From assembly GCF_006345805.1 (NCBI RefSeq), contig NC_043011.1, positions 3,224,001-3,288,000 of the forward strand: 64,000 bases of DNA, in the 5' to 3' direction. The stretch is from Octopus sinensis. Taxonomy: Eukaryota. Under the pieces are notes generated by a model. That model was not told the DNA's origin. It saw nothing but the letters and a program-made list of their open reading frames with translations, and ran no database searches. The position numbers and the translations under genes are program-made. Below, one piece after another: positions 703 to 51,315 of the stretch (position 1 is the stretch's first letter; every line of letters begins with the position of its first letter).

Positions 703-833
703 CTGTTATTATTATTATTATTGTTATTATTATTGTTATTATTATTGTTATTATTATTGTTATTATTATTGTTATTATTATTATTATTGTTGTTGTTATT
801 ATTATTATTGTGTTGTTGTTGTTGTTGTTGTTG

Positions 834-870
<37 letters not shown>

Positions 871-878
871 ATCATCAT
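703..878. repeat. Compound (TTA)n/(TTG)n microsatellite
   Basis: Direct observation. Confidence 0.95.
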
Positions 879-1004
879 CTCCCTTTCATTCAGCCTCCTT
901 TTCCTGCTCATCTCATCATGTTGGACCTTTGAACTCTGCACATTACATTTTTTTCTCTCACCATTTTTTTTTTTCATTCTCTCACCCTTTTTCCCCTCTT
1001 AATC

Positions 1005-1130
1005 CTTTCTGATGAAGAGCATAGGCTCAAAACATAAAAGACTTTTCCATTCTTCTTGAGCATTAAACTAATACACCTACTTCTTGCTCCTACACCTGTC
1101 TTCATCTTTTGTTTTCTGTAGATTTGAACT
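1005..1130 (+). mobile_element. PLE-type terminus with decayed minimal hammerhead (1005-1040), ending in (CA)n
   Basis: CTTT-CTGATGA-A-GAGC(ATAG)GCTC-AAAAC-ATA-AAAG with G12A and G16.2A changes at likely CpG sites; downstream ~90 bp homologous to 29721-29810 (minus). Confidence 0.65.
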
Positions 1131-2712
1131 ACACACGCACACACACACACACACACACACAGATAGATAAAATCATAATCCTATAACATGTCCTTCTCTA
1201 CGCTTGTATGGATTAGATGGATTTTTTTTAAAGCAGATTTTCTATAGCCACATCCCTTTCCTGTCGTCAATCCTCACCTGTTCCCAAGCAAGGTAGTATT
1301 TCTCCATGACCAAACACATTTTTGCAGAATACTGGAAATGAATGCCATTGCTTGTATGTCAGACACAGTCATTTTACTACTATCATGCAATATCAAGAAA
1401 AAGAGATACATACACTCACTCTCACACACATACTTATATAAATATACAAGACAGGCTTCTTTCAGTTTTCATTTGCTAAGTTTATTCACTAAGCTTTGGT
1501 CAACCTGGGGCTACAATAGAAGACACTTGCCCAAGGTGCCACACAGTGGGACTGGATGTGGAATGATATGGTTAGGAAGCAACCTTCTTACAGTTTGCTT
1601 CTACTGGAAAGAACAGATTCTGTTGTCAGGAAGTCTTTCTAATGCTAATTTGCAATATGCTTCCACATGAATGTTCATGGTTAAAAATGCAATCAGTGGC
1701 AGGGGCTTATAATGTTTTAGTGAGAAGTCTTGAAAATGAAATCTTTAAAACTGAAATCTTTCAAAAGGCATCATTAAATTGGTGTGAACAATGGATTAAC
1801 AACTCATTATATTAATTAATTAGTCCAAACTTACATCTCACGATTTCAAGTACCTCTATACAGCATAAATTACATCAGCTCTAACCCCTTAACTCTTTTA
1901 AACTGAACTGCTATCCTATACAATTATATAAAGGGAGTAAAGCAGTCGTAATTTATGATGCACGGAAGCATTTAAAATTCTAAAATCTAGGTCTAGACTA
2001 ATTAATAAATATAATGAGTTCTTGATGCATTGTTTACCCCAATTTAATGTAATCCTTTTACAAATTCCATTTAGCTCGTTATGAAATTAGATACACGCGT
2101 CTATTGACTGCGTTTCAGTTTTCACTGCTTCTGTCATTCTTCTCTCATCTTTCCATGCTTGTAGTCCTTCAACCCTTTTATCCTTTTTAAAAGTAATCGA
2201 TCCCTTTCTAGAATATTAATCATCCACGTATCTTACAGATTACCATTTCAATCTTTTAACTTTCTTGTTTAGCTATTTACTGATTCAGTACATTCTAATA
2301 ATTTTACTATATTACCATCTTATTTATATTTTATTATACATGCATACATGCATGTGCACATGCATGCTTATATACACATGTACATATAAATGAATATGTA
2401 TGTGTGTGCATGTGAATGTGCACATGTTCGTTCATATTTGTGAGGGCATGTGTGCACTCATATACAGATGTGCATACTTGCATCAATACAGACATGAACA
2501 CAAAACCATATGAGCACGTCCACACACCCACATATACAACTAAAATCTTTGCAAACACTGCTTCTTCTCACTTCCCCTCCAACAACTCAATTTCCTGTCC
2601 GCCACGTGGTTGAGTTCCTGTTCACCCTACAGTATTCTCCAACTAAATGTTGAAGACTAGCATCATGCTTAAAACTTGGAGTACCAATGAATTTGAATGA
2701 AACTGCTTTGAT

Positions 2713-2750
<38 letters not shown>

Positions 2751-2801
2751 ATACACACACACATATATATATGTTCATATATATATATATATATATATAT
2801 G

Positions 2802-2876
<75 letters not shown>

Positions 2877-2892
2877 ATATAATATATATATA

Positions 2893-3723
2893 CACAGGTT
2901 GCAGTGAATACACTATTGTCTCAATTATGCAAAAATGAAAATAACACTGACATCTCATTTTAACAGATATATTTACCAAAATTACATCAAAATATCTAGA
3001 AATACTAATCAGTAAATTTAATAAAATCACCATTGGCTTCAGCAACAACCTCCAGATGACTTTGGAATCTCTTGCAACTCTTCTGGATGGTTTCCTTGTT
3101 TAAGTTGGTGAATGCTGCCATAATCCTTGCCTTCATCATTGGTGTTACAAGGAGTTTTGTTTGTCTGTCACTCAACTGCGTCCCACACATAATAATCAAG
3201 AGGGGGGCTGCAGTCTGGGGAGTTAGGTGGCCAGATTTTAGGGGTGACACGGTTGCCACAATTATCTGACAGCTATGACTGGGTTCTCCTGTTTGATGCA
3301 GATTTCTGTTCCAAAAGATAGGGTCTTCCAGCAGTCATCCTCTTCCAGGCACTTGATGTAGGCTTCCATGCTGAGTTTGAGGGAAGATGAATGGAAGCAT
3401 AACAGCATCATCAATAGTGATCACTCCAAACACTGTGATGTTGACTGGATGTTTGATTTTTATCACTCTCAGTACATGTCTTCAGACTGACACCCAAGCA
3501 CTTTGAAATGTTGATATTGGAGCTTCAGGCATGAACGCCAAGCATTACAGCATGTTGTTACCAAATTTCTGGCAGAGTGAATTGCGTCTTGGAGCTGTTG
3601 TTCTCATATGCAGTGCCCAACTAACTCTACTATACTGTGTAGTTGACAAAATAAAGAACAAACAATGCACATGTGTGGAATCAAAAATATAAAATGGCGA
3701 CAATTTACCCATCGCTCCCTGTA
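2893..3723 (-). mobile_element. Decayed Tc1/mariner-superfamily (DD37D/maT-like) DNA transposon
   Basis: Minus strand encodes WPPNSPDCSPLDYYVWDAVER..KARIMAAFTNLNKETIQKSCKRFQSHLEVVAEANGDFI; degenerate TIRs at 2893-2920 and 3700-3723. Confidence 0.8.
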
Positions 3724-3766
3724 TTCACTGCATATTCACTGTATATATATACAAACATATATATAC

Positions 3767-3803
<37 letters not shown>

Positions 3804-3841
3804 GAAAGAAGGTTTGAAAATGCAATTTAAAAAATGTTTAT

Positions 3842-3886
3842 TTACTTTACCGGTTTCACTCTTTGGAAAAAGATTGTCAAAAGTAA
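3842..3886 (-). ncRNA. Minimal type-I hammerhead ribozyme, U3-A8 variant (inverted copy)
   Basis: Reverse complement of 4673-4717. Confidence 0.72.
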
Positions 3887-4672
3887 CATGTAGAAGTTTG
3901 GTTGCGTTAATTATTGGTTGTTACAAATTGCTACATTACATATATACAGTCTTTGGTAACAGGGACATATTAAGGACATAAAAAAGTTTAACAAGTTCCT
4001 TGAAATATTGGGCACAAAAGACTACTACATAAATAATCATTCTCAAGGACATGCTTGAAGGAGAGACAAAAAGGGTAAATTCTTTTCAGTTCCACATTAC
4101 TCCTCCTTTCCCCCAACCAAACACACCTACTGTGTCCCTTGAAATAGATAATATTCTTTTATGTTACCATGGTGGACAGGTCAGTTTTAGCTTCACTACT
4201 ATTATAATGTAAACCTTTTTGAACTCATAATATTCTGTACGTGTATACCAATATTTACTGAACTTTTTTAATAATTCCTTCTGGAAATTATCTTGAGAAT
4301 ATATAATATATTTGTTGTAATCTTTTGTGCCCATTATTTCAATGAGCTTGTTAAACTCTTTTCTATTCTCAACATGCTCTTGTCACCAAAGAATGTATAT
4401 TTATATGGATTATAGTACTCTGTGTCAACCAATATTCTGTGCATGTTTGAATATACAGATACAATACCAATACCAATATCAATTCCTTCTGGAAACTATC
4501 TTAAGCATGTCCTTGAGAATGATTATTTATGTAGTAATCTTTTGTACCCAATATTTTAAGGAACTTGTTAAACTTTTTTATGTCCTTAACATGTCCCTGT
4601 CACCAAAGACTGCATATATGTAATGTAGCAATTTGTAACAACCAATAATTAATGCAACCAAACTTCTACATG

Positions 4673-4717
4673 TTACTTTTGACAATCTTTTTCCAAAGAG
4701 TGAAACCGGTAAAGTAA
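4673..4717 (+). ncRNA. Minimal type-I hammerhead ribozyme, U3-A8 variant
   Basis: TTACTT-TTGACAA-TCTTT(TTCC)AAAGA-GT-GAAA-CCGGT-A-AAGTAA; 6-bp stem I, GUA cleavage triplet. Confidence 0.72.
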
Positions 4718-4816
4718 ATAAACATTTTTAAAATTGCATTTTCAAACCTTTCGTATATAATTCCACTCGTGCGGTACCCTACAACTCCAATTTGTTATAT
4801 ATATATATATATATAT

Positions 4817-5465
4817 GGCCTGTGCCAGGGGCGTAACCAGCCCACTTGTGCATACCTTTTCCTTCTTTGGACACTAAACTCTGCTTGCGAAGACTTGTTG
4901 AGGCAAGTGAAGTCAAAATCAAAATCAAAGTGAAATTAGATGACGGGCACGAGCACCATACGAGCGTGGTCGTTGACAGAGCGGCTAACTGGCTTCCGTG
5001 CCAGTGGCACATAAAAGGCGCCATTCGAGTGTGATCATTGCCAGCTTCGCCTTACTGGCACTTGTGCACCGTGCTAGCAGGGTGCTAAGAGCACCATCCG
5101 AGCATTATCATTCCCAGAGCGGCTAACTGGCTTCCATGCCAGTGGCATGTAGGAGGCACCATTCGAGCGGGATCGTTACCAGCATCACCTTACTGGCACC
5201 TGTGCTGTTGGCATGTGTAAAAAATTTGAGCGAGGTCATTGCCAGTACCGCCTGACTGGCCCCTGTGCCGGTGGCACATAAAAGCACCCACTGCACTCTC
5301 AGAGTGGTTGGCGTTAGGAAGGGCATCCAACTGTAGAAACTCTGCCAGATCAAGACTGGAGTCTGGTGCAGCCATCTGGTTCACCAGCCCGCAGTCAAAC
5401 CATCCAACCCAAGCTAGCATGGAAAGCGGATGTTAAACGATGATGATGATGATGATGATGATGAT
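4817..5465 (+). mobile_element. (GAT)n-tailed retroelement 3' UTR (RTE-type), copy 1 of tandem duplication
   Basis: Internal GCCAG..ACTGGC repeats; ends GCATGGAAAGCGGATGTTAAACGATGATG. Confidence 0.75.
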
Positions 5466-5613
5466 GTATATATATATCATCTTCACAAATATTTTCTCCA
5501 GAATTATTTGCTCCGTATATATTAAATATATATATATATATATGAATATATATATATATATTTATATATATTTATATATATTTATATATATTTATATATA
5601 TATATATATATAT

Positions 5614-6262
5614 GGCCTGTGCCAGGGGCGTAACCAGCCCACTTGTGCATACCTTTTCCTTCTTTGGACACTAAACTCTGCTTGCGAAGACTTGTTGAGG
5701 CAAGTGAAGTCAAAATCAAAATCAAAGTGAAATTAGATGACGGGCACGAGCACCATACGAGCGTGGTCGTTGACAGAGCGGCTAACTGGCTTCCGTGCCA
5801 GTGGCACATAAAAGGCGCCATTCGAGTGTGATCATTGCCAGCTTCGCCTTACTGGCACTTGTGCACCGTGCTAGCAGGGTGCTAAGAGCACCATCCGAGC
5901 ATTATCATTCCCAGAGCGGCTAACTGGCTTCCATGCCAGTGGCATGTAGGAGGCACCATTCGAGCGGGATCGTTACCAGCATCACCTTACTGGCACCTGT
6001 GCTGTTGGCATGTGTAAAAAATTTGAGCGAGGTCATTGCCAGTACCGCCTGACTGGCCCCTGTGCCGGTGGCACATAAAAGCACCCACTGCACTCTCAGA
6101 GTGGTTGGCGTTAGGAAGGGCATCCAACTGTAGAAACTCTGCCAGATCAAGACTGGAGTCTGGTGCAGCCATCTGGTTCACCAGCCCGCAGTCAAACCAT
6201 CCAACCCAAGCTAGCATGGAAAGCGGATGTTAAACGATGATGATGATGATGATGATGATGAT
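5614..6262 (+). mobile_element. (GAT)n-tailed retroelement, copy 2 (identical, 797 bp offset)
   Basis: Identical ORF translations at 797-bp offset (4846 vs 5643; 5239 vs 6036). Confidence 0.8.
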
Positions 6263-6383
6263 GTATATATATATCATCTTCACAAATATTTTCTCCAGAA
6301 TTATTTGCTCCGTATATATTAAATATATATATATATATTATATATATATATATGAATATATATATATATATTTTATATATATT

Positions 6384-6431
<48 letters not shown>

Positions 6432-8720: not shown

Positions 8721-9274
8721 TTCTAGAGAAAAGACATGAGATCCTGGAAGGTGTCGCTTCCAACTCTGGAGCTGAAAGTTATATCAACCACCAAACAGGA
8801 TGCCACTATATTGCACCAAAGATCTTGTCCTTGCCATCTAGAGAATGGACATAATACTGTAACAGTTTAGGTTTCAAAGACCCAAAGCTTTTCAACACTC
8901 TGCCAAACAACCTCAGAGATCTGAAAGGTGTAGATGCAGATGTTTTCAAAGATCATATGGACAAATTATTATCTGATGTCCCAGATGAACCCACATCATG
9001 GTAGAAAATGTGAAGGAGAGCAACTCTGTCCTACTCACTACTCCACTAGAAACAATTCTGGAAAGAAAGAGCTGAAGTGAGCATGAAATGAAAAGTAATC
9101 ACACTAAAGGTGATGCCCCAGCATGACCACAACCTTAGGCTAAAACCAGTAAAAGTAAAAAGTTAATAAAAAGTAAAAAGTGAACAATAATAACAACATT
9201 AATAATAATAGAAATAATAACAGTTTCAAATTTTGGTACAAGGCCAGTAATTGTGGTGAAGTAAGTAAATTGAT

Positions 9275-9665
9275 AACCTGGACGTTATCAAAGAAGCTTG
9301 AGAGGCGGTTGGATGGAACCTACACTCGCCTCCTTATGAGAGCTCAAAATCTCTCGTGGAGGTGCCATCCAACCAAAATGCAAATATATGGGAAACTACC
9401 ACCTGTGTCATCTCTTGTGAAAGGTAGGAGAGTCCAGTTTGCTGGACATTGTTGTAGAGCTGAAAACGAGGTAATCTCTACTCTTCTTCTCTGGAAGCCA
9501 TCTGCTTGCGATGCCAAAGGGCGCACACTCTCCTACCCTGATGTAATCTCCAGGGATACAGGCATCCAGCAAAAGGACCTCCGTAATGCCATGATGGACC
9601 GTGAAGTCTGGCGTAGCATGGTAAATTCCATTGTCTCGACCATGGTCGAACAATGATGATGATGA
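9275..9665 (+). mobile_element. 5'-truncated RTE-group LINE (C-terminal ORF fragment, (GAT)n tail)
   Basis: TWTLSKKLERRLDGTYTRLLMRAQNLSW...RRVQFAGHCCR...DREVWR; TSD AAGTAAATTGAT at 9263-9274 and 9666-9677. Confidence 0.88.
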
Positions 9666-9925: not shown

Positions 9926-10337
9926 AGGTGCAGGAGTGGCTGTGTGGTAAGTAGCCTGTCTATCAACCACATGGTTCCGGGTTCAGTCCCACTGCGTGGC
10001 ATCTTGGGCAAGTATCTTCTGCTATAGCCTCGGGCCGACCAAAGCCTTGTGAGTGGATTTGGCAGACGGAAACTGAAAGAAGCCTGTCGTATTTATGTAT
10101 ATATATATGTATATGTGTGTATATGTTTGTGTGTCTGTGTTTGTCCACCCTAGCATTGCTTGACAACCGATGCTGGCGTGTTTACGTCCCCGTCACTTAG
10201 CGGTTCGGCAAAAGAGACCGATAGAATAAGTACTGGGCTTACAAAGAATAAGTCCCGGGGTCGATTTGCTCGACTAAAGGCGGTGCTCCAGCATGGCCAC
10301 AGTCAAATGACTGAAACAAGTAAAAGAGTAAAAGAGT
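9926..10337 (+). mobile_element. SINE family A (tRNA-like head, internal TA/TG microsatellite, (GTAAAAGA)n tail)
   Basis: A-box-like TGGCTGTGTGG, B-box-like GGTTCAGTCCC; about 20 copies in window. Confidence 0.92.
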
Positions 10338-10539
10338 ATGCTGCCAAGACATTTGTGAAGTTTATGGTGAATGATGCTGTAGGTGAATCAATTGTTCGAA
10401 GGTGGTTTGCAAAATTTAAAGCTGGAGAGTTTAGTTTGGAAGATGACAGTTGCAGTGGAAGACCTTCAAAATTGGATGAAGATGTTTTGAAGGCAAAAAT
10501 CGAAGAAAACTCAAATATCATAACTAGAGAACTTGGAAG

Positions 10540-10735
10540 TTTAGCACACCAGCTGAAATGCTTAGCAGTATTTCTTCTGTCTTTACATTCTGAGTTCAAA
10601 TTCTGCCAAGGTCAACTTTGCTTTTCATCCTTTTGGGGTCGATAAATTAAGTACCAGTTTCATACTGGGGTCGATCTAATTGATCGGCTCCTTCCCCACC
10701 AAATTTCAGGCCTTATACCTTGAGTAAAAAAAGAA
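10540..10735 (+). mobile_element. SINE family B
   Basis: GAGTTCAAATTCTGCCAAGGTCAACTTTGCTTTTCATCC core. Confidence 0.8.
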
Positions 10736-13698: not shown

Positions 13699-14108
13699 AG
13701 GCGCAAGAGTGGCTGTGTGGTAAGTAGCTTGCTAACCAACCACATGGTTCTGGGTTCAGTCCCACTGTGTGGCATCTTGGGCAAGTGTCTTCTGCTATAG
13801 CCTCGGGCTGACCAAGGCCTTGTGAGTGGATTTGGTAGATGGAAACTGAAAGAAGCCTGTCGTATATATGTATATATATATATATATATGTGTGTGTCTG
13901 TGTTTGTCCCTCTAGCATTGCTTGACAACCGATGCTGGTGTGTTTACGTCCCCGTCACTTAGCGGTTCGGCAAAAGAGACTGATAGAATAAGTACTGGGC
14001 TTACGAAGAATAAGTCCCGGGGTCGATTTGCTCGACTAAAGGCGGTGCTCCAGCATGGCCGCAGTCAAATGACTGAAACAAGTAAAAGAGTAAAAGAGTA
14101 AAGAGAGA
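13699..14108 (+). mobile_element. SINE family A
   Basis: Full-length match to family consensus. Confidence 0.92.
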
Positions 14109-14374
14109 ATGCTTTCATACTTAAACGCAAACATGTACACACACACACATTCTTGTATTCTCTTACTTGTTTCAGTCATTAGACTGCAGCCATGCAAGAA
14201 AGAAGTAAGAAGTGAACAATTTTAGTGAAACAAATCAACCCTATTACTGATTTTTTAAGCCTGGTACTTATTTTATTGGTCTCTTTTGCTGAACAACTAA
14301 GTTACAGGGATGTAAACACATCCACAGAGTGTCAAATATTGTAATGCACACACACATCATTATCCTCCTCCTCC

Positions 14375-36165: not shown

Positions 36166-36794
36166 GTATACTCATGCATTTACAAATACATTTTACCTTC
36201 CCTTACAATGTTTGTCCTTGTGTCTGTATTCGAAATTTATGCCCCTGTTTCCATATTAAAACTCTGTGACCTTCCCATCATATTAGAATTCACTATTCAA
36301 ATTTGCTGAACTGTTAATTTAGCTTTTAGAATGTTTTTACCAGAGTTATATTTATACATTATTTTGATCAGTTTGATCTCTGATCTTTATCAAATATTTT
36401 ATCCTTTGATATGGTCAGTCTGTTGCATGGTGTATAAGCTTATCACTGCATTTCGAATTGGTTTGATAAAGGTATTATATCTATAAATATTTTACAATAT
36501 TTATATAAACTGGTGATTAATAATCCAGAAAATTATAATCTTATGTCAGACATTTTGACTTTTGGCCAACTACTGACAGAGATGCTGCTGTTGAACCTCA
36601 TGTCCATGCTGATGAGCAGGACACTGACCAGAAGTAGTTCAGCCATAATCTTCACTTTGAAGCAACCAATTTACAAATCACTATGTCCTTTTGTCGTTTT
36701 CATATTCTGAGTTTGTGATATTGTCTAAGATGCCACTTGTGATAGAATCTGTTGAGACAATATTTCAATAATAGAAGTCTGTGTTGCTTGTAGA

Positions 36795-37889
36795 ATAGGT
36801 AACATGTGTCTCCTCCTAATGAGACGATATTTCATCCAAAAATTAATGTTGATACCAGTAATACTTGAAGACATTTATCAACGTCAATAGATAACATGTG
36901 TCTCCTCCTAATGAGACGATATTTCATCCAAAAATTAATGGTGATACCAGTAATACTTGAAGACATTTATCAATGTCAATAGGTAGCATGTGTCTCCTCC
37001 TAATGAGACGATATTTCATCCAAAAATTAATGTTGATACCAGTAATACTTGAAGACATTTATCAATGTCAATAGGTAGCATGTGTCTCCTCCTAATGAGA
37101 CGATATTTCATCCAAAAATTAATGTTGATACCAGTAATACTTGAAGACATTTATCAATGTCAATAGGTAACATGTGTCTCCTCCTAATGAGACGATATTT
37201 CATCCAAAAATTAATGTTGATACCAGTAATACTTGAAGACATTTATCAATGTCAATAGGTAGCATGTGTCTCCTCCTAATGAGACGATATTTCATCCAAA
37301 ATTAATGGTGATACCAGTATACTTGAAGACATTATCAATGTCAATAGGTAACATGTGTCTCCTCCTAATGAGATGATATTTCATCCAAAAATTAATGTTG
37401 ATACCAGTAATACTTGAAGACATTTATCAATGTCAATAGTAACATGTGTCTCCTCCTAATGAGACGATATTTCATCCAAAAATTAATGTTGATACCAGTA
37501 ATACTTGAAGACATTTATCAATGTCAATAGTAACATGTGTCTCCTCCTAATGAGACGATATTTCATCCAAAAATTAATGTTGATACCAGTAATACTTGAA
37601 GACATTTATCAATGTCAATAGGTACATGTGTCTCCTCCTAATGAGACGATATTTCATCCAAAAATTAATGTTGATACCAGTATACTTGAAGACATTTATC
37701 AATGTCAATAGGTAACATGTGTCTCCTCCTAATGAGACGATATTTCATCCAAAAATTAATGTTGATACCAGTAATACTTGAAGACATTTATCAATGTCAA
37801 TAGGTAACATGTGTCTCCTCCTAATGAGATGATATTTCATCCAAAAATTAATGGTGATACCAGTAATACTTGAAGACATTTATCGATGC
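36795..37889. repeat. Minisatellite, 12 x ~92 bp
   Basis: Unit ATAGGTAACATGTGTCTCCTCCTAATGAGACGATATTTCATCCAAAAATTAATGTTGATACCAGTAATACTTGAAGACATTTATCAATGTCA at 36795, 36887, 36979... Confidence 0.97.
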
Positions 37890-45279: not shown

Positions 45280-45310
<31 letters not shown>

Positions 45311-45313
<3 letters not shown>

Positions 45314-45977
45314 AAAAAAGGTTTGAAAATGCAATTTAAACGATGTTTATTTACTTAACCGGTTTCACTCTTTGGTAAAAGATTGTCAAAAGTTACATTT
45401 AAGGAAACATTGAATAATATGGGTTCAAAAAAAGTTTTTTACATAATTGTCACATTGAATATTATGCATTCAAAAAAGTTTTTACATAATTGTCACATTG
45501 GATATTATGGATTCAAAAATGTTTTTTTATACATAATTGTCACATTACATGTATAAATATAGTGTTTGGTAACAGAGAAGTTCAATAGTGTGATGAGAAT
45601 ATTTGGGAAAATTTGGCAGAAAAGGATAAAACAAATATATTATTGGGAATTGGTTGCGTTAATTATTGGTTGTCGCAAATTGTCACATTACATGTATATA
45701 TATACAATCTTCGGTATATATATACAGCCTTTTGACAGCAAAAATTAAAATGGATTTTTTATACATCTCAGAATATTTTAAGTACAAGGCGAGAATATGT
45801 TTTTACTGACCTGTTGGTATTAGCAGAAAGGCTGAACTGAGAGAACAGAGGAAGTAGCCAATGTGGTGTATACTTCCCCTTTATGCATGAATGATTTTGG
45901 GGTTATCAGGAGGTTAGTATGCGGGTGTGAATAGATGTGTCCGTGCCCGCTGGTCAGATAGCGTCTGTTTGTCACAC

Positions 45978-46017
<40 letters not shown>

Positions 46018-46201
46018 CAACACACACACACACACACATATAGTAAACAAACACACACCACATACAAACAACACACACACACACACAGAACACACACACC
46101 CACACACAACGCACCCACATATATCACATATACACACAGCACACAAATATAATATGTATCTATATATAACATACACAGATATATAACACACATACACACA
46201 C

Positions 46202-46236
<35 letters not shown>

Positions 46237-47011
46237 CACACGCACACATACATACGTAATATAAATATCACACAAATACACCTAGCATATATATACACAC
46301 ATACAATACACACATACAGCATGTAAGTAATATACATACACAATATATGCATGCAATATACATACGCAGTACATACATATAATATATATATATAGACAAT
46401 GCATATACATATATACACATATACATATAAATAGTGTTTACATACACATACATAGATGTACCACATATACACAAATACACATACATACAACGCATACACA
46501 TACACGTACGCATACATATAATATATACACACACACACACATAACATACATACACAATGTATACATATATATACACGCAATGCACATACATGTATTCATG
46601 CATATAGCACACCTACAATATACATATATACACTGCACACATACACACACATATATACACTTAATTGTACACATACATATACAATACACATACATACAAT
46701 ATACATATACACAATGCGCATGCAAATAATGTACATGTTTATACACACATAAACAAGCAAATAAATATACACACACACACATACACACATACACATATAT
46801 ATATATATATACACACATACATACATACATACATGCACATACATATATTTTTTCACACACATACACATACATATATATATATATAAAAAATTCACCCCCC
46901 CCCCACACAAATTACAACCTATAGCGTACACACTCAAATATATCTCTACATGCCGCACACACACAAACAAAGTACTAACATATACACACATACCATGCAT
47001 ATACACACACA

Positions 47012-47047
<36 letters not shown>

Positions 47048-47125
47048 TTAAAAACAAATACACATGTAAATACATACATACGTACATAATGCTCACACAC
47101 ACACACACATACACACACACCCGTA
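45311..47125 (-). repeat. Left inverted arm of PLE (inverted copy of 3' UTR/pLTR)
   Basis: Reverse complement of 49567-51244; joins the RT ORF at CACACCCGTA|ATAAT. Confidence 0.93.
45353..45393 (-). ncRNA. Minimal type-I hammerhead ribozyme, U3-A8 variant (inverted-arm copy)
   Basis: Exact reverse complement of 51162-51202. Confidence 0.7.
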
Positions 47126-49200
47126 ATAATATCGACGAATCAATGGTCTGTAACAAAAGCAACTATAATCCCATAAAAGGCAAAAACAAAACCTTAGACA
47201 AATTTTGCGATTACATCTCCAACTTCCCTTATGGTGAACTCCCACAACCTAAACTCAAACCGAACACCAGTAAAAGAGAATGGGAAATCATCCATACGCT
47301 ACGAGACAATCATGACGTCACAATAAAGGAAGCTGATAAGGGTAGTACGGTCGTTGTTATGAATACTGAGCAATATAAAAACTCTGTATCTCTCCTTTTA
47401 GAGGATACCACATACTACGAAAGAGTAGTCGACTACCAGCAATCCAAAACAATGACCAATCTGAAGGCACTCATTTACCAACACCGGAATGACTTGACAG
47501 CAAAGGAATGCGACTACATTACTAAATTTAATTGCAAAACCAGCACACTCTATGGGCTTCCAAAAATACACAAGAGTCAAATTATCACAGAAGCTTGCAA
47601 AAAGTCCACTTCAACCTGCATCACTATACCACATCCCACTGATCTCAAACTGAGACCAATAGTGGCAGGCCCAAGTTGTGAAACACACAGACTTAGCAAC
47701 TTTATAGATATCATCTTAAAGCCAATACTGAAACACATTCCAAGTATTGTAAGAGATGACCTGGACCTATTAAAGCATCTCCCCAACATGCCGATAAAGA
47801 CACCTTAATCGTTTCTTTTGATGTTATTAATCTTTACACCACAATCCCACATGAATTTGGACTGGAAGCCATTAAATTCTGGCTGGATAAATATCCCAAT
47901 GAGATCCCGGAAAGAATTAAAAAAGAATTCATAATTGAGGGCCTCAAATTTATTCTGCAAAACAACTTCATGTATTTCCACAACAACACTTACAGACAGG
48001 TCTCAGGTACTGCAATGGGTACGAAAGTTGCACCTACCTATGCAAACCTGGTGATGGCCTACCTGGAATCACATATCTATGAAAAATCCAAATATAAGTA
48101 CGGCCAGTCTTTCCACAAATACCTGTTGGAGAACTGGAAACGCTACTTAGATGATTGCCTCATCCTATGGTCCCACACACTCGACCAACTTATAGACTTC
48201 AAAAACCTTATCAACAGTGTAAATAACAACATTCAATTCACAATGGAATATAGTCAGGACCAACTCCCTTTTCTTGACATCCTAATCATTAAAAAAGGCG
48301 TCAACATTGAAACTGACATCCATTACAAACCCACTGACTCTAAACAATACCTTCTATTCACCTCCAATCACCCAAAACACACAAAGACAGATATCCCCTT
48401 CAACCTAGCGAGAAGAATCTGCACTATTGTCTCAAATGACACAACACGAAATAGAAGACTCCGGGAACTAAGGGCAATTCTTCTCGAAAGACATTACCCG
48501 GCATCACTAGTAGACAACGGAATAGAACGGGCCAAATCAATCAACATTCAAGACCTTCGAAAACCCAAACACATCCACAGTACAGTCAATAGCCTCCCTT
48601 ATCTCTCAACACACAACCCAAGGAATGCAGAAGCTTACACTATTATATACAACAACATTCCACAACTAAATCAAGACCCACGCCTGAAAAAAATACTGGC
48701 AGCTCATAAAATAATAAAAAGTAAGAGACAACCTAAATCCCTAAAAAGCCTCCTCACCAATGCAAAATTACACAACACAAACCCACCGCCCACCATCAAA
48801 AAAATGTGGTCGCCCCAACTGCAAGACCTGCATCCACCTCATTGAGGGATCATCGTACAAGTTCCACTCGGGACACACATTCATCATAAAAAATAATTTC
48901 ACGTGCGCATCAAAAAATTTACTCTACGTCATAAGGTGTGAAGGATGCCACGAAGATTACATAGGGCAAACGAGCCTTACCCTCAGAGACAGAATGACAG
49001 TTCACCGACAACAACTGAGGGACCCCTCCACAAGACAGATACCACTAAGTGGACACTTAGACCTTTGTGCACACAATAAGTCCCCCAAATTCTTAGTCTT
49101 CCCACTATACCAATGCTCGGACAACACCACAGACCAAACACGAATAAATAAGGAAAGTAATCTTATTCAAAAATACAGACCACAACTAAACATACTCTAA
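47121..49200 (+). pseudogene. PLE reverse transcriptase + C-terminal GIY-YIG endonuclease (Neptune/Naiad-type with Cys-rich linker); 5'-truncated, two 1-bp frameshifts
   Basis: Motifs IKEADKG, YGLPKIHK, LRPIVAG, SFDVINLYT (frame after ~47790), GTAMGTKVAPTYANL, RYLDD, LPFLD, YKPTD..HP, CGRPNCKTC, LYVIRC..C..YIGQT..RMTVH. Spread over ORFs 47089-47808, 47970-48845 and 48760-49200. Confidence 0.95.
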
Positions 49201-49385
49201 CATACCCCCTGGAGACACATCCAGAGCAAGCACACAGGGACGCGTGCACGCTCACAGCATATCGTGCGGGCGGGCACATGCGTGCATCGGCACGCATAGG
49301 ACACACTAGCGGGCATTGACCGCACACATACGTGGCATGCACACGCATGCATTATATATATGTAGGTGATGTATGTGTGTGAGTG

Positions 49386-49419
<34 letters not shown>

Positions 49420-49566
49420 ACGTTGTGTGTGTGTGTGCGCGGGTGTATATATATATGTGTGTGTGTGTGTGCACTGTGTGCGTGTGTGTGTATGTGTGTG
49501 CGTGCACGCGCGTTGTGTGTATGTGTGTGTGCACGTGTGTATATATGTGTGTGTGTGTGCACTGTG

Positions 49567-49639
49567 TACGGGTGTGTGTGTATGTGTGTGTGTGTGAGCA
49601 TTATGTACGTATGTATGTATTTACATGTGTATTTGTTTT

Positions 49640-49680
<41 letters not shown>

Positions 49681-49872
49681 TGTGTGTGTATATGCATGGT
49701 ATGTGTGTATATGTTAGTACTTTGTTTGTGTGTGTGTGCGGCATGTAGAGATATATTTGAGTGTGTACGCTATAGGTTGTAATTTGTGTGTGGGGGGGGT
49801 GAATTTTTTATATATATATATGTGTATGTGTGTGTGTGTGTATATATATATATATGTATGTGTATGTGTGTA

Positions 49873-49905
<33 letters not shown>

Positions 49906-50330
49906 GTGTATATATGTGTGTGTGTGTATGTGTGTGTGTGTATATTTATTTGCTTGTTTATGTGTGTATAAACATGTACATTATTTGCATGCGCATTGTG
50001 TATATGTATATTGTATGTATGTTATGTGTGTGTGTGTGTATATATATATTATATGTATGCGTACGTGTATGTGTATGCGTTGTATGTATGTGTATTGTGT
50101 GTATATGTGGTACATCTATGTATGTGTATGTAAACACTATTTATATGTATATGTGTATATATGTATATGCATTGTCTATATATATATATTATATGTATGT
50201 ACTGCGTATGTATATTGCATGCATATATTGTGTATGTATATTACTTACATGCTGTATGTGTGTATTGTATGTGTGTATATATATGCTAGGTGTATTTGTG
50301 TGATATTTATATTACGTATGTATGTGTGCG

Positions 50331-50380
<50 letters not shown>

Positions 50381-50548
50381 TTATATATCTGTGTATGTTA
50401 TATATAGATACATATTATATTTGTGTGCTGTGTGTATGTGATATATGTGGGTGCGTTGTGTGTGGGTGTGTGTGTTCTGTGTGTGTGTGTGTGTTGTTTG
50501 TATGTGGTGTGTGTTTGTTTACTATATGTGTGTGTGTGTGTGTGTTGT

Positions 50549-50579
<31 letters not shown>

Positions 50580-51244
50580 GTGTGACAAACAGACGCTATC
50601 TGACCAGCGGGCACGGACACATCTATTCACACCCGCATACTAACCTCCTGATAACCCCAAAATCATTCATGCATAAAGGGGAAGTATACACCACATTGGC
50701 TACTTCCTCTGTTCTCTCAGTTCAGCCTTTCTGCTAATACCAACAGGTCAGTAAAAACATATTCTCGCCTTGTACTTAAAATATTCTGAGATGTATAAAA
50801 AATCCATTTTAATTTTTGCTGTCAAAAGGCTGTATATATATACCGAAGATTGTATATATATACATGTAATGTGACAATTTGCGACAACCAATAATTAACG
50901 CAACCAATTCCCAATAATATATTTGTTTTATCCTTTTCTGCCAAATTTTCCCAAATATTCTCATCACACTATTGAACTTCTCTGTTACCAAACACTATAT
51001 TTATACATGTAATGTGACAATTATGTATAAAAAAACATTTTTGAATCCATAATATCCAATGTGACAATTATGTAAAAACTTTTTTGAATGCATAATATTC
51101 AATGTGACAATTATGTAAAAACTTTTTTGAACCCATATTATTCAATGTTTCCTTAAATGTAACTTTTGACAATCTTTTACCAAAGAGTGAAACCGGTTAA
51201 GTAAATAAACATCGTTTAAATTGCATTTTCAAACCTTTTTTCTT
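49567..51244 (+). repeat. Right arm of PLE (microsatellite-rich 3' UTR plus pLTR)
   Basis: Cryptic (TG/TA) region, then unique sequence from ~50580 including a ~44-bp x3 repeat (51005-51145) and the HHR. Confidence 0.93.
51162..51202 (+). ncRNA. Minimal type-I hammerhead ribozyme, U3-A8 core variant
   Basis: ACTT-TTGACAA-TCTTT(TACC)AAAGA-GT-GAAA-CCGGT-T-AAGT: stem I ACTT/AAGT, stem II TCTTT/AAAGA, palindromic stem III ACCGGT. Confidence 0.7.
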
Positions 51245-51279
51245 ATATAATCCCACTCGTGCGATACCCCACAACTCAA

Positions 51280-51315
<36 letters not shown>

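Follow-up and report, generated by a model that had tools for sequence, protein, structure and literature searches.

Introduction

Excerpts of two papers list inverted 5'-truncated copies, one-sided tails of 30-40 bp and (TA)n targets as standard traits of PLEs (PMC8557442, Craig et al., 2021; PMC3846280, Arkhipova et al., 2013). In microsatellite-targeting PLEs, the target-site duplication is unreadable in (TA)n (PMC8557442, same excerpt). The minimal hammerheads of metazoan PLEs have a U3-A8 core and occur as pairs 100-700 bp apart on opposite strands, and single hammerhead motifs have been ascribed to truncated PLEs, according to the accessible portion of Cervera and De la Pena (2014; PMC4209133). 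For the Poseidon element PAc of Anolis, both target strands were found to be nicked at AT-rich DNA and extended in vitro. Reverse transcription of PAc starts at two sites, whose spacing equals the genomic tail and which are not homologous to the target (available sections of PMC11167929, Frangieh et al., 2024). Non-LTR retrozymes carry a type I hammerhead in every head-to-tail unit and are associated with circular RNAs of 170-400 nt (excerpts of PMC7229834 and bioRxiv 10.64898/2026.07.22.740005).

We analyzed a stretch of 64,000 nucleotides from Octopus sinensis, referred to here as the window. It contains a 1-kb element (the small element) and a large PLE. The small element resembles endonuclease-bearing PLE insertions in its 5' truncation, inverted terminal repeat (pLTR), tail, (TA)n surroundings and TATA-like pLTR motif. 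Unlike other such insertions, the window copy is too short for an ORF, and the long 3' non-coding region of its family is made of 43-bp and ~200-bp units. Our analysis indicates that the small element is probably a single, aged, 5'-truncated PLE insertion from a family that is related to, and distinct from, that of the large PLE in the window.

Results

Anatomy of the small element

The small element combines a 740-bp sense 3' end, a 259-bp inverted copy and a 37-bp tail in (TA)n (Table 1). A preliminary description of the locus had reported inverted arms of ~255 bp, an arm motif that recurs near 45650, a one-sided tail in (TA)n like that of the large PLE, the same U3-A8 hammerhead in the arms of both elements and the absence of an ORF, and these observations held up. 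The arms are 97% complementary over 248 nt (3809-4056 and 4503-4750). Extended to the TATATA (3798-4056 and 4503-4758), they show 248 matches and 8 substitutions in 256 aligned positions, together with one 3-nt gap; seven of the substitutions are transitions. The motif TTGGTTGCGTTAATTATTGGTTG is exact at 3898-3920 and at 45650, and has one change in the right-arm copy of the small element. The tails of the two elements (4760-4796 and 51250-51286) are both 37 bp long, and hammerhead matches lie in the arms of both. The longest stop-free stretch of the small element is 100 codons, and none of 120 PLE proteins matched it in tblastn searches (E<=0.05). Two diverged tandem units of ~200 bp had also been described in the interior; the units exist and are 74% alike, but most of the second is part of the right arm. 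The flanks are both (TA)n, with no readable target-site duplication.

Long inverted arms, the lack of an ORF and TA on both sides would also be expected of a MITE with long terminal inverted repeats and a TA target-site duplication, in which case the hammerhead likeness would be incidental. We consider such an origin exceedingly improbable. The right arm ends 37 bp before the end of the element, so the repeats are not terminal. The arms match the ends of an element with RT and GIY-YIG domains, not the Tc1/mariner remnants of the window, and no transposase-coding element sharing the termini of the small element was found in the 64-kb window.

Table 1. Positions of the features of the small element and of the large PLE in the window.
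Feature	Position	Strand	Remarks
Left (TA)-rich target run	3742..3802	.	Merges with the TATATA where the inverted arm starts
Inverted copy (259 bp) of sense 4503-4758	3798..4056	-	Without tail
Minimal type I hammerhead, U3-A8 core, inverted-arm copy	3842..3886	-	
TTGGTTGCGTTAATTATTGGTTG motif	3898..3920	+	Common to the small element and the large PLE (45650)
740-bp sense 3' end of the non-coding pLTR (terminal repeat) of the family	4057..4796	+	5'-truncated at 4057
Single diverged relative of the 43-bp unit	4204..4236	+	Unit is tandem in the arms of the large PLE
Tandem unit 1 (~200 bp)	4229..4430	+	Lacks a hammerhead; homologous in part to 50914-51039
Tandem unit 2 (~218 bp)	4431..4648	+	Lacks a hammerhead; largely part of the right arm
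Minimal type I hammerhead, U3-A8 core	4673..4717	+	6-bp helix I; U.U at helix II base; helix III a palindrome, ACCGGU; cleavage predicted after A4711
Internal TATATA	4754..4759	+	Inverted arm begins here; putative internal start of reverse transcription
PLE tail (37 bp)	4760..4796	+	One-sided, without mirror image
Right (TA)n target run	4797..4816	.	
Other arm-to-body junctions (contigs)	3977>4163; 4536/4577 (strand switch); 3859>4713; 3896>4656; 3832>4727; 3833>4726		
Large PLE inverted arm (~1.8 kb)	45306..47125	-	Also starts at an internal TATATA
Large PLE ORF, RT and C-terminal GIY-YIG, CX4CX2C linker	47122..49200	+	Two frameshifts
Large PLE sense terminal repeat	49567..51286	+	Hammerhead 51160-51204, TATATA 51244, 37-bp tail 51250-51286

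Hammerheads in the arms and in PLE relatives

A hammerhead-like pattern with a U3-A8 core matched the window only at 4673 (+), 3842-3886 (-), 51166 (+) and 45389 (-), with 0 matches expected from 100 shuffles. We also used a descriptor that comprises a C3-G8 or U3-A8 core, a helix II of at least 4 pairs that may have a free base next to it on either side, GAAA, UH and helix I. Its window matches are the four arm copies only (mean of 0.07 in 60 shuffles), and it was matched in 2 of 2000 shuffles of the small element, which argues against an incidental likeness in a MITE. The descriptor was built to admit the window motif, and its matches in the window are therefore not independent evidence. The independent test was provided by relatives: 28 of 97 PLE-related loci were scanned, and 11 of the 28 contain a match. 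Among 14 close relatives, seven have a match located 149-448 bp behind the RT/EN match and two more have the core by a relaxed pattern; the remaining five, some of which have short flanks, show no convincing hammerhead.

Covariation was assessed in an alignment of the two window motifs and six relatives, with L001, L018 and L019 left out. In this alignment 88% of the cells pair, compared with 34-41% in slid controls, and 12 of the 13 pairs have changed on both sides. The core pair alternates between C3-G8 (five sequences) and U3-A8 (three). The rows were chosen for their fit to the descriptor, so the result tilts towards the structure. Read with that tilt in mind, the covariation in the relatives supports the hammerhead of the small element as a real homologue of PLE hammerheads, and it likewise speaks against the MITE reading. 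Rfam gave no hammerhead family among its 144 matches in the window, nor among the three in 4560-4796, the motif being too minimal for the Rfam models. Single-sequence folding did not support the hammerhead either (z about 0; a different minimum-energy fold; probability of helices I and II <=0.02 in the sense part), and searches with an exact pattern returned 0 matches in metagenome contigs and 0 in viral contigs. The helix III palindrome ACCGGU is predicted to permit pairing between two molecules (-8.3 kcal/mol), a type of intermolecular pairing already proposed for PLE minimal hammerheads (PMC4209133, accessible portion).

The window motif is similar to the metazoan PLE hammerheads described in that portion of PMC4209133 in being of type I, in its tiny palindromic helix III, in its U3-A8 core and in forming an opposite-strand pair. 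The spacing of the pair is about 790 bp in the window element, compared with the published 100-700 bp. The hammerheads in the same text have a conserved G10.1-C11.1 pair preceded by an extra base, whereas the window motif and five relatives (L002, L019, L022, L024 and L026) start helix II with U.U. The U.U variant, or the family of the small element, may already be present in published supplementary alignments or repeat libraries. In L006, a distant PLE relative, identical hammerheads are found at 538 (-) and 2065 (+), in the same inverted arrangement. TATAW is located 25-115 nt behind the hammerhead GAAA in all eight relatives checked (52 nt in the window element); the region is AT-rich and this was not counted as evidence.

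The large PLE and its relationship to the small element

The large PLE has RT (PF00078) and GIY-YIG (PF01541) domains at 47760-49197. Its reading frame is in three pieces that are 67-80% identical to the homologue P0001 and lacks the first ~79 residues of that protein; the large PLE is therefore 5'-truncated as well. Where its arms were compared, they agree at 665 of 665 positions, with 5 gap columns, versus 248 of 256 in the small element. The large PLE is thus young by its identical arms, yet its ORF is 5'-truncated and has frameshifts near 47780 and 48800, which may be sequencing errors or errors made during insertion. The linker preceding the C-terminal GIY-YIG is CGRPNCKTC (CX4CX2C), and a CX2-5CxxC linker is given for Neptune and Nematis PLEs in the excerpt of PMC8557442. 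The large PLE resembles these groups in both its C-terminal GIY-YIG and its linker, whereas the small copy has no protein to place; its family is probably of the Neptune type. The named homologues of the large PLE protein are from oyster and mussel, together with contigs that carry bivalve-symbiont labels; these contigs are probably host DNA. PLE-type RT contigs (L001-L016) were found in bacterial genome bins, and these are probably eukaryotic host DNA. In the large PLE, about 1970 bp, largely (CA)/(TG) microsatellite, lie between the ORF end and the hammerhead (49200-51160), compared with 149-448 bp in the seven relatives.

The ends of the two elements, with the hammerhead, TATATA and tail, share 116 of 133 bases (51154-51286 in the large PLE), and 55 of 67 bases are common to both around the TTGGTTGCG motif. 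The two are 87-92% alike over the last ~130 bp only, and upstream the likeness is patchy at about 60-70%. Alignments of 4204-4300, 4303-4436 and 4568-4661 to the large PLE beat 200 of 200 shuffles at about 60-70% identity, and 4057-4200 has no match to it above chance, with 101 of 200 shuffles scoring as high. Direct derivation of the small element from the large PLE of the window was rejected, since the likeness is confined to the end, patchy upstream and absent at 4057-4200. High identity at the end combined with diverged or unmatched upstream sequence points to a sister family whose terminal repeat is built differently. A search for the tail motif among the 97 relative loci gave one partial match (L093), and the 37-bp tail appears to be family-specific. 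The splice-donor-like sequence ACAGGTCAGT is present in both elements (4176-4185 and 50743-50752), and several of the listed contig joints end at 4174-4175; PLE repeats can contain introns, and this may be due to chance.

Other copies in public contigs

Part of the small element is present in 20 of 24 listed sequencing runs, and none of the runs listed with part of it is recorded as RNA. Contigs of four runs, three of DNA (X1, X2 and X4) and one guessed to be RNA (X12), were compared with the element. In the DNA runs, contigs are present in 30 of 30 bins. Contig depth, which when summed does not equal copy number, increases towards the 3' end: it is 6.6-15.6 thousand at 4074-4175 and exceeds 100 thousand at the hammerhead, whereas single contigs have depths of about 25-95. 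The interior of the small element thus consists of repeated sequence in which the 3' part is in excess. The bin that contains the junction (4040-4073) is the lowest of the 30 in X1 (5427), X2 (1168) and X4 (3401). At 4067, 11 bp from the 4056|4057 junction, the depth is still 815-5958, which we counted against truncation. No contig bridges 4056|4057 among the 32 pieces listed (5557 more pieces and 448 more loose ends exist), and none of the contigs listed has an extension of at least 20 letters 5' of 4057.

Six other arm-to-body junctions, with depths of 18-60, were found among the 15 of 24 joints listed (Table 1). Two of them, 3977>4163 and 4536/4577, involve family-specific sequence, and the other four only the terminal ~140 bp common to the large family. 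These two and 3859>4713 have at least 30 letters on the short side, and the other three have <30 and were matched at 80% likeness. The joints listed also include one that removes both tandem units (4235>4671), three that remove one unit (4255>4481, 4238>4451 and 4329>4551) and others that step back by one unit (4472 and 4480>4265, and 4521>4306). The preliminary description had proposed that other copies be checked for fixed or variable internal boundaries. In the contigs listed they are variable, both in the junctions, which mark the truncation points, and in the unit number. Arm lengths, junctions and unit numbers that differ among copies are at odds with the uniform size and fixed inner boundaries of a MITE. 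At 4022, 4358 and 4363, all or nearly all of the depth has another letter, indicating that the letters at these positions are private to the window copy. In X12, contigs are present in 29 of 30 bins, and some are pieces of the large family; they were counted neither for nor against expression. One X12 contig (record 12) matches 4051-4158 after 9 unmatched letters, a hint of a 6-bp microhomology (ATGCTT) at the junction.

Neighbouring sequences

The left flank (~3000-3741) resembles a Tc1/mariner remnant on the basis of one translated motif; its minus strand reads WPPNSPDCSPPLDYYVW, and the flank ends in CACTG-TA. On the right, a ~797-bp SINE-like block between (TA)n runs is present as a head-to-tail duplicate (4817-5613 and 5614-6415) with 0 mismatches in the first 640 bp, which reflects either a very recent duplication or an assembly artefact. 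Further along the window, 9177-9656 is presumably a LINE-like C-terminal fragment of the RTE type, with no Pfam match, and 10154-10645 is a mariner HTH_48 fragment. An imperfect hairpin of ~144 bp at 14052-14195, with a weak MIR840 match far below threshold, may be a small MITE. At 36794-37888, a 92-bp unit is repeated in twelve copies that are 97% alike.

Discussion

The small element is most likely an ordinary truncated insertion, a known type of PLE product, from a new family of a known kind. Its 3' end is homologous to the terminal repeat of an element that encodes RT and GIY-YIG domains. The hammerhead is located in the terminal repeat, sense to the ORF, and an inverted truncated copy of the 3' end is found at the 5' side. 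The same architecture is seen in the ORF-bearing large PLE, itself 5'-truncated with a 1.8-kb inverted arm. The tail, the hammerhead homology and the match of the ends to an RT/GIY-YIG element support the earlier view of the locus as a PLE derivative and not a MITE. That view had included an extremely 5'-truncated insertion as one possible origin, which is favoured by the varying junctions and unit numbers, but the truncation is of a sister family and not of the large PLE in the window. The small copy does not contain an RT + GIY-YIG ORF. No ORF is linked to the interior of its family, which speaks against our reading. A literature search, outside which lay most subscription papers, Repbase and Dfam, returned no description of the family or of TATATA-paired priming.

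A two-start mechanism could produce such a copy. A PLE RT/GIY-YIG protein would nick both strands of a (TA)n run and reverse-transcribe the element RNA twice. The first cDNA would begin at the outer start site of the RNA, which gives the tail, and stop after 740 nt. The second would begin at the UAUAUA 37 nt further in, on the opposite target strand, and stop after about 255 nt. Head-to-head joining of the cDNA ends during repair would then give the 4056|4057 junction. At insertion the arms would have been identical, and they have since drifted by about 1.6% each; provided that new arms are identical, as those of the large copy are, the 3.1% difference implies an older insertion. The two-start model is derived from a Poseidon element in vitro, which belongs to another clade than the window elements. 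In PAc, the start sites are located inside the first 120 nt of the ORF and have no target homology (PMC11167929, available sections), whereas in the window elements a long distance separates the hammerhead and tail from the ORF, and the inner start would be a TATATA matching the (TA)n target. The internal TATATA, 37 bp from the end, is the exact starting point of the inverted arm in both window elements. In X2, 16 contigs run off the left end of the element into AT-rich DNA. The arm starts, seen in just two related elements, tentatively suggest that the (TA)n target primer pairs with the UAUAUA of the RNA itself (target-paired priming).

The truncated copy could instead come from a non-autonomous PLE family. 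An ORF-less terminal-repeat RNA with the hammerhead, TATATA and tail would be moved in trans by an autonomous relative, such as the family of the large PLE, and the inverted arm would be made anew at each insertion. A last ~130 bp that closely resembles the large PLE next to diverged and rearranged upstream sequence fits such a family, as does a repeated interior with a varying number of units. In Chlamydomonas, non-autonomous PLE families that resemble autonomous ones at the 3' end have been described (PMC8557442, excerpt), and pLTRs are enough for mobilisation in trans in Adineta (PMC3846280, excerpt). The Chlamys MRC1 element in the former excerpt is like the window copy in having no ORF and in its 3' similarity to autonomous families. 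PLEs of the MRC1 type are, however, defined families with their own full length, whereas for the window copy such a family is putative. Since the 3' non-coding region of the large PLE is about 2 kb, a 740-bp truncation of an autonomous sister would be equally ORF-less. The contig depth drops towards 4057, as 5' truncation predicts, and none of the observations demands an ORF-less source. We therefore regard a non-autonomous source as rather unlikely. It is the part that stands of an earlier proposal of a non-autonomous, retrozyme-like retroelement; the retrozyme-like part fails, the units being without hammerheads and each strand having only one. It is unlikely, in our view, that the copy comes from a repeated satellite family without an ORF that depends on a (TA)n-targeting PLE, with the hammerhead, TATATA and tail as its only cis signals and, in this clade, an inner start set by pairing of nicked (TA)n with UAUAUA. 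If true, the TATATA alone would account for the choice of microsatellite targets, the constant 37-bp tail and the inverted arm, in contrast to the homology-free priming reported for Poseidon.

A fixed arm-body-arm element of ~1 kb, copied whole as a retrozyme-like ribozyme RNA or a hairpin RNA, would be in keeping with the two hammerhead copies and the tandem ~200-bp units, and none of the contigs listed rules out the same junction in other copies. The small element is indeed similar to non-LTR retrozymes in being non-coding, hammerhead-bearing and PLE-related. However, a hammerhead in each unit is part of the retrozyme definition, whereas the window units have none, the descriptor matching the arms only. 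The two hammerheads face opposite ways, so that no transcript contains two and no unit-length monomer could be cut out. The junctions differ among relatives, and a transcript of the whole copy is predicted to form an arm-arm hairpin (-456.7 kcal/mol, z -32), with a pair probability of about 1.0 between the arms and 0.0 for the hammerhead helices. We judge a fixed element to be very improbable. As a truncated insertion, the small copy would most likely be inert or, if transcribed, give rise to double-stranded RNA, because the predicted ~250-bp hairpin buries the hammerhead.

With long inverted arms, TA flanks and no ORF, stubs of this kind could be filed as MITEs by automatic tools. The one-sided tail and the minimal hammerhead distinguish PLE stubs from MITEs. 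A near-perfect inverted repeat of ~250 bp is a potential source of double-stranded RNA, if it is transcribed. PLE stubs are also natural records of PLE integration, and inverted arms that start at a target-like TATATA make PLE priming and microsatellite targeting testable.
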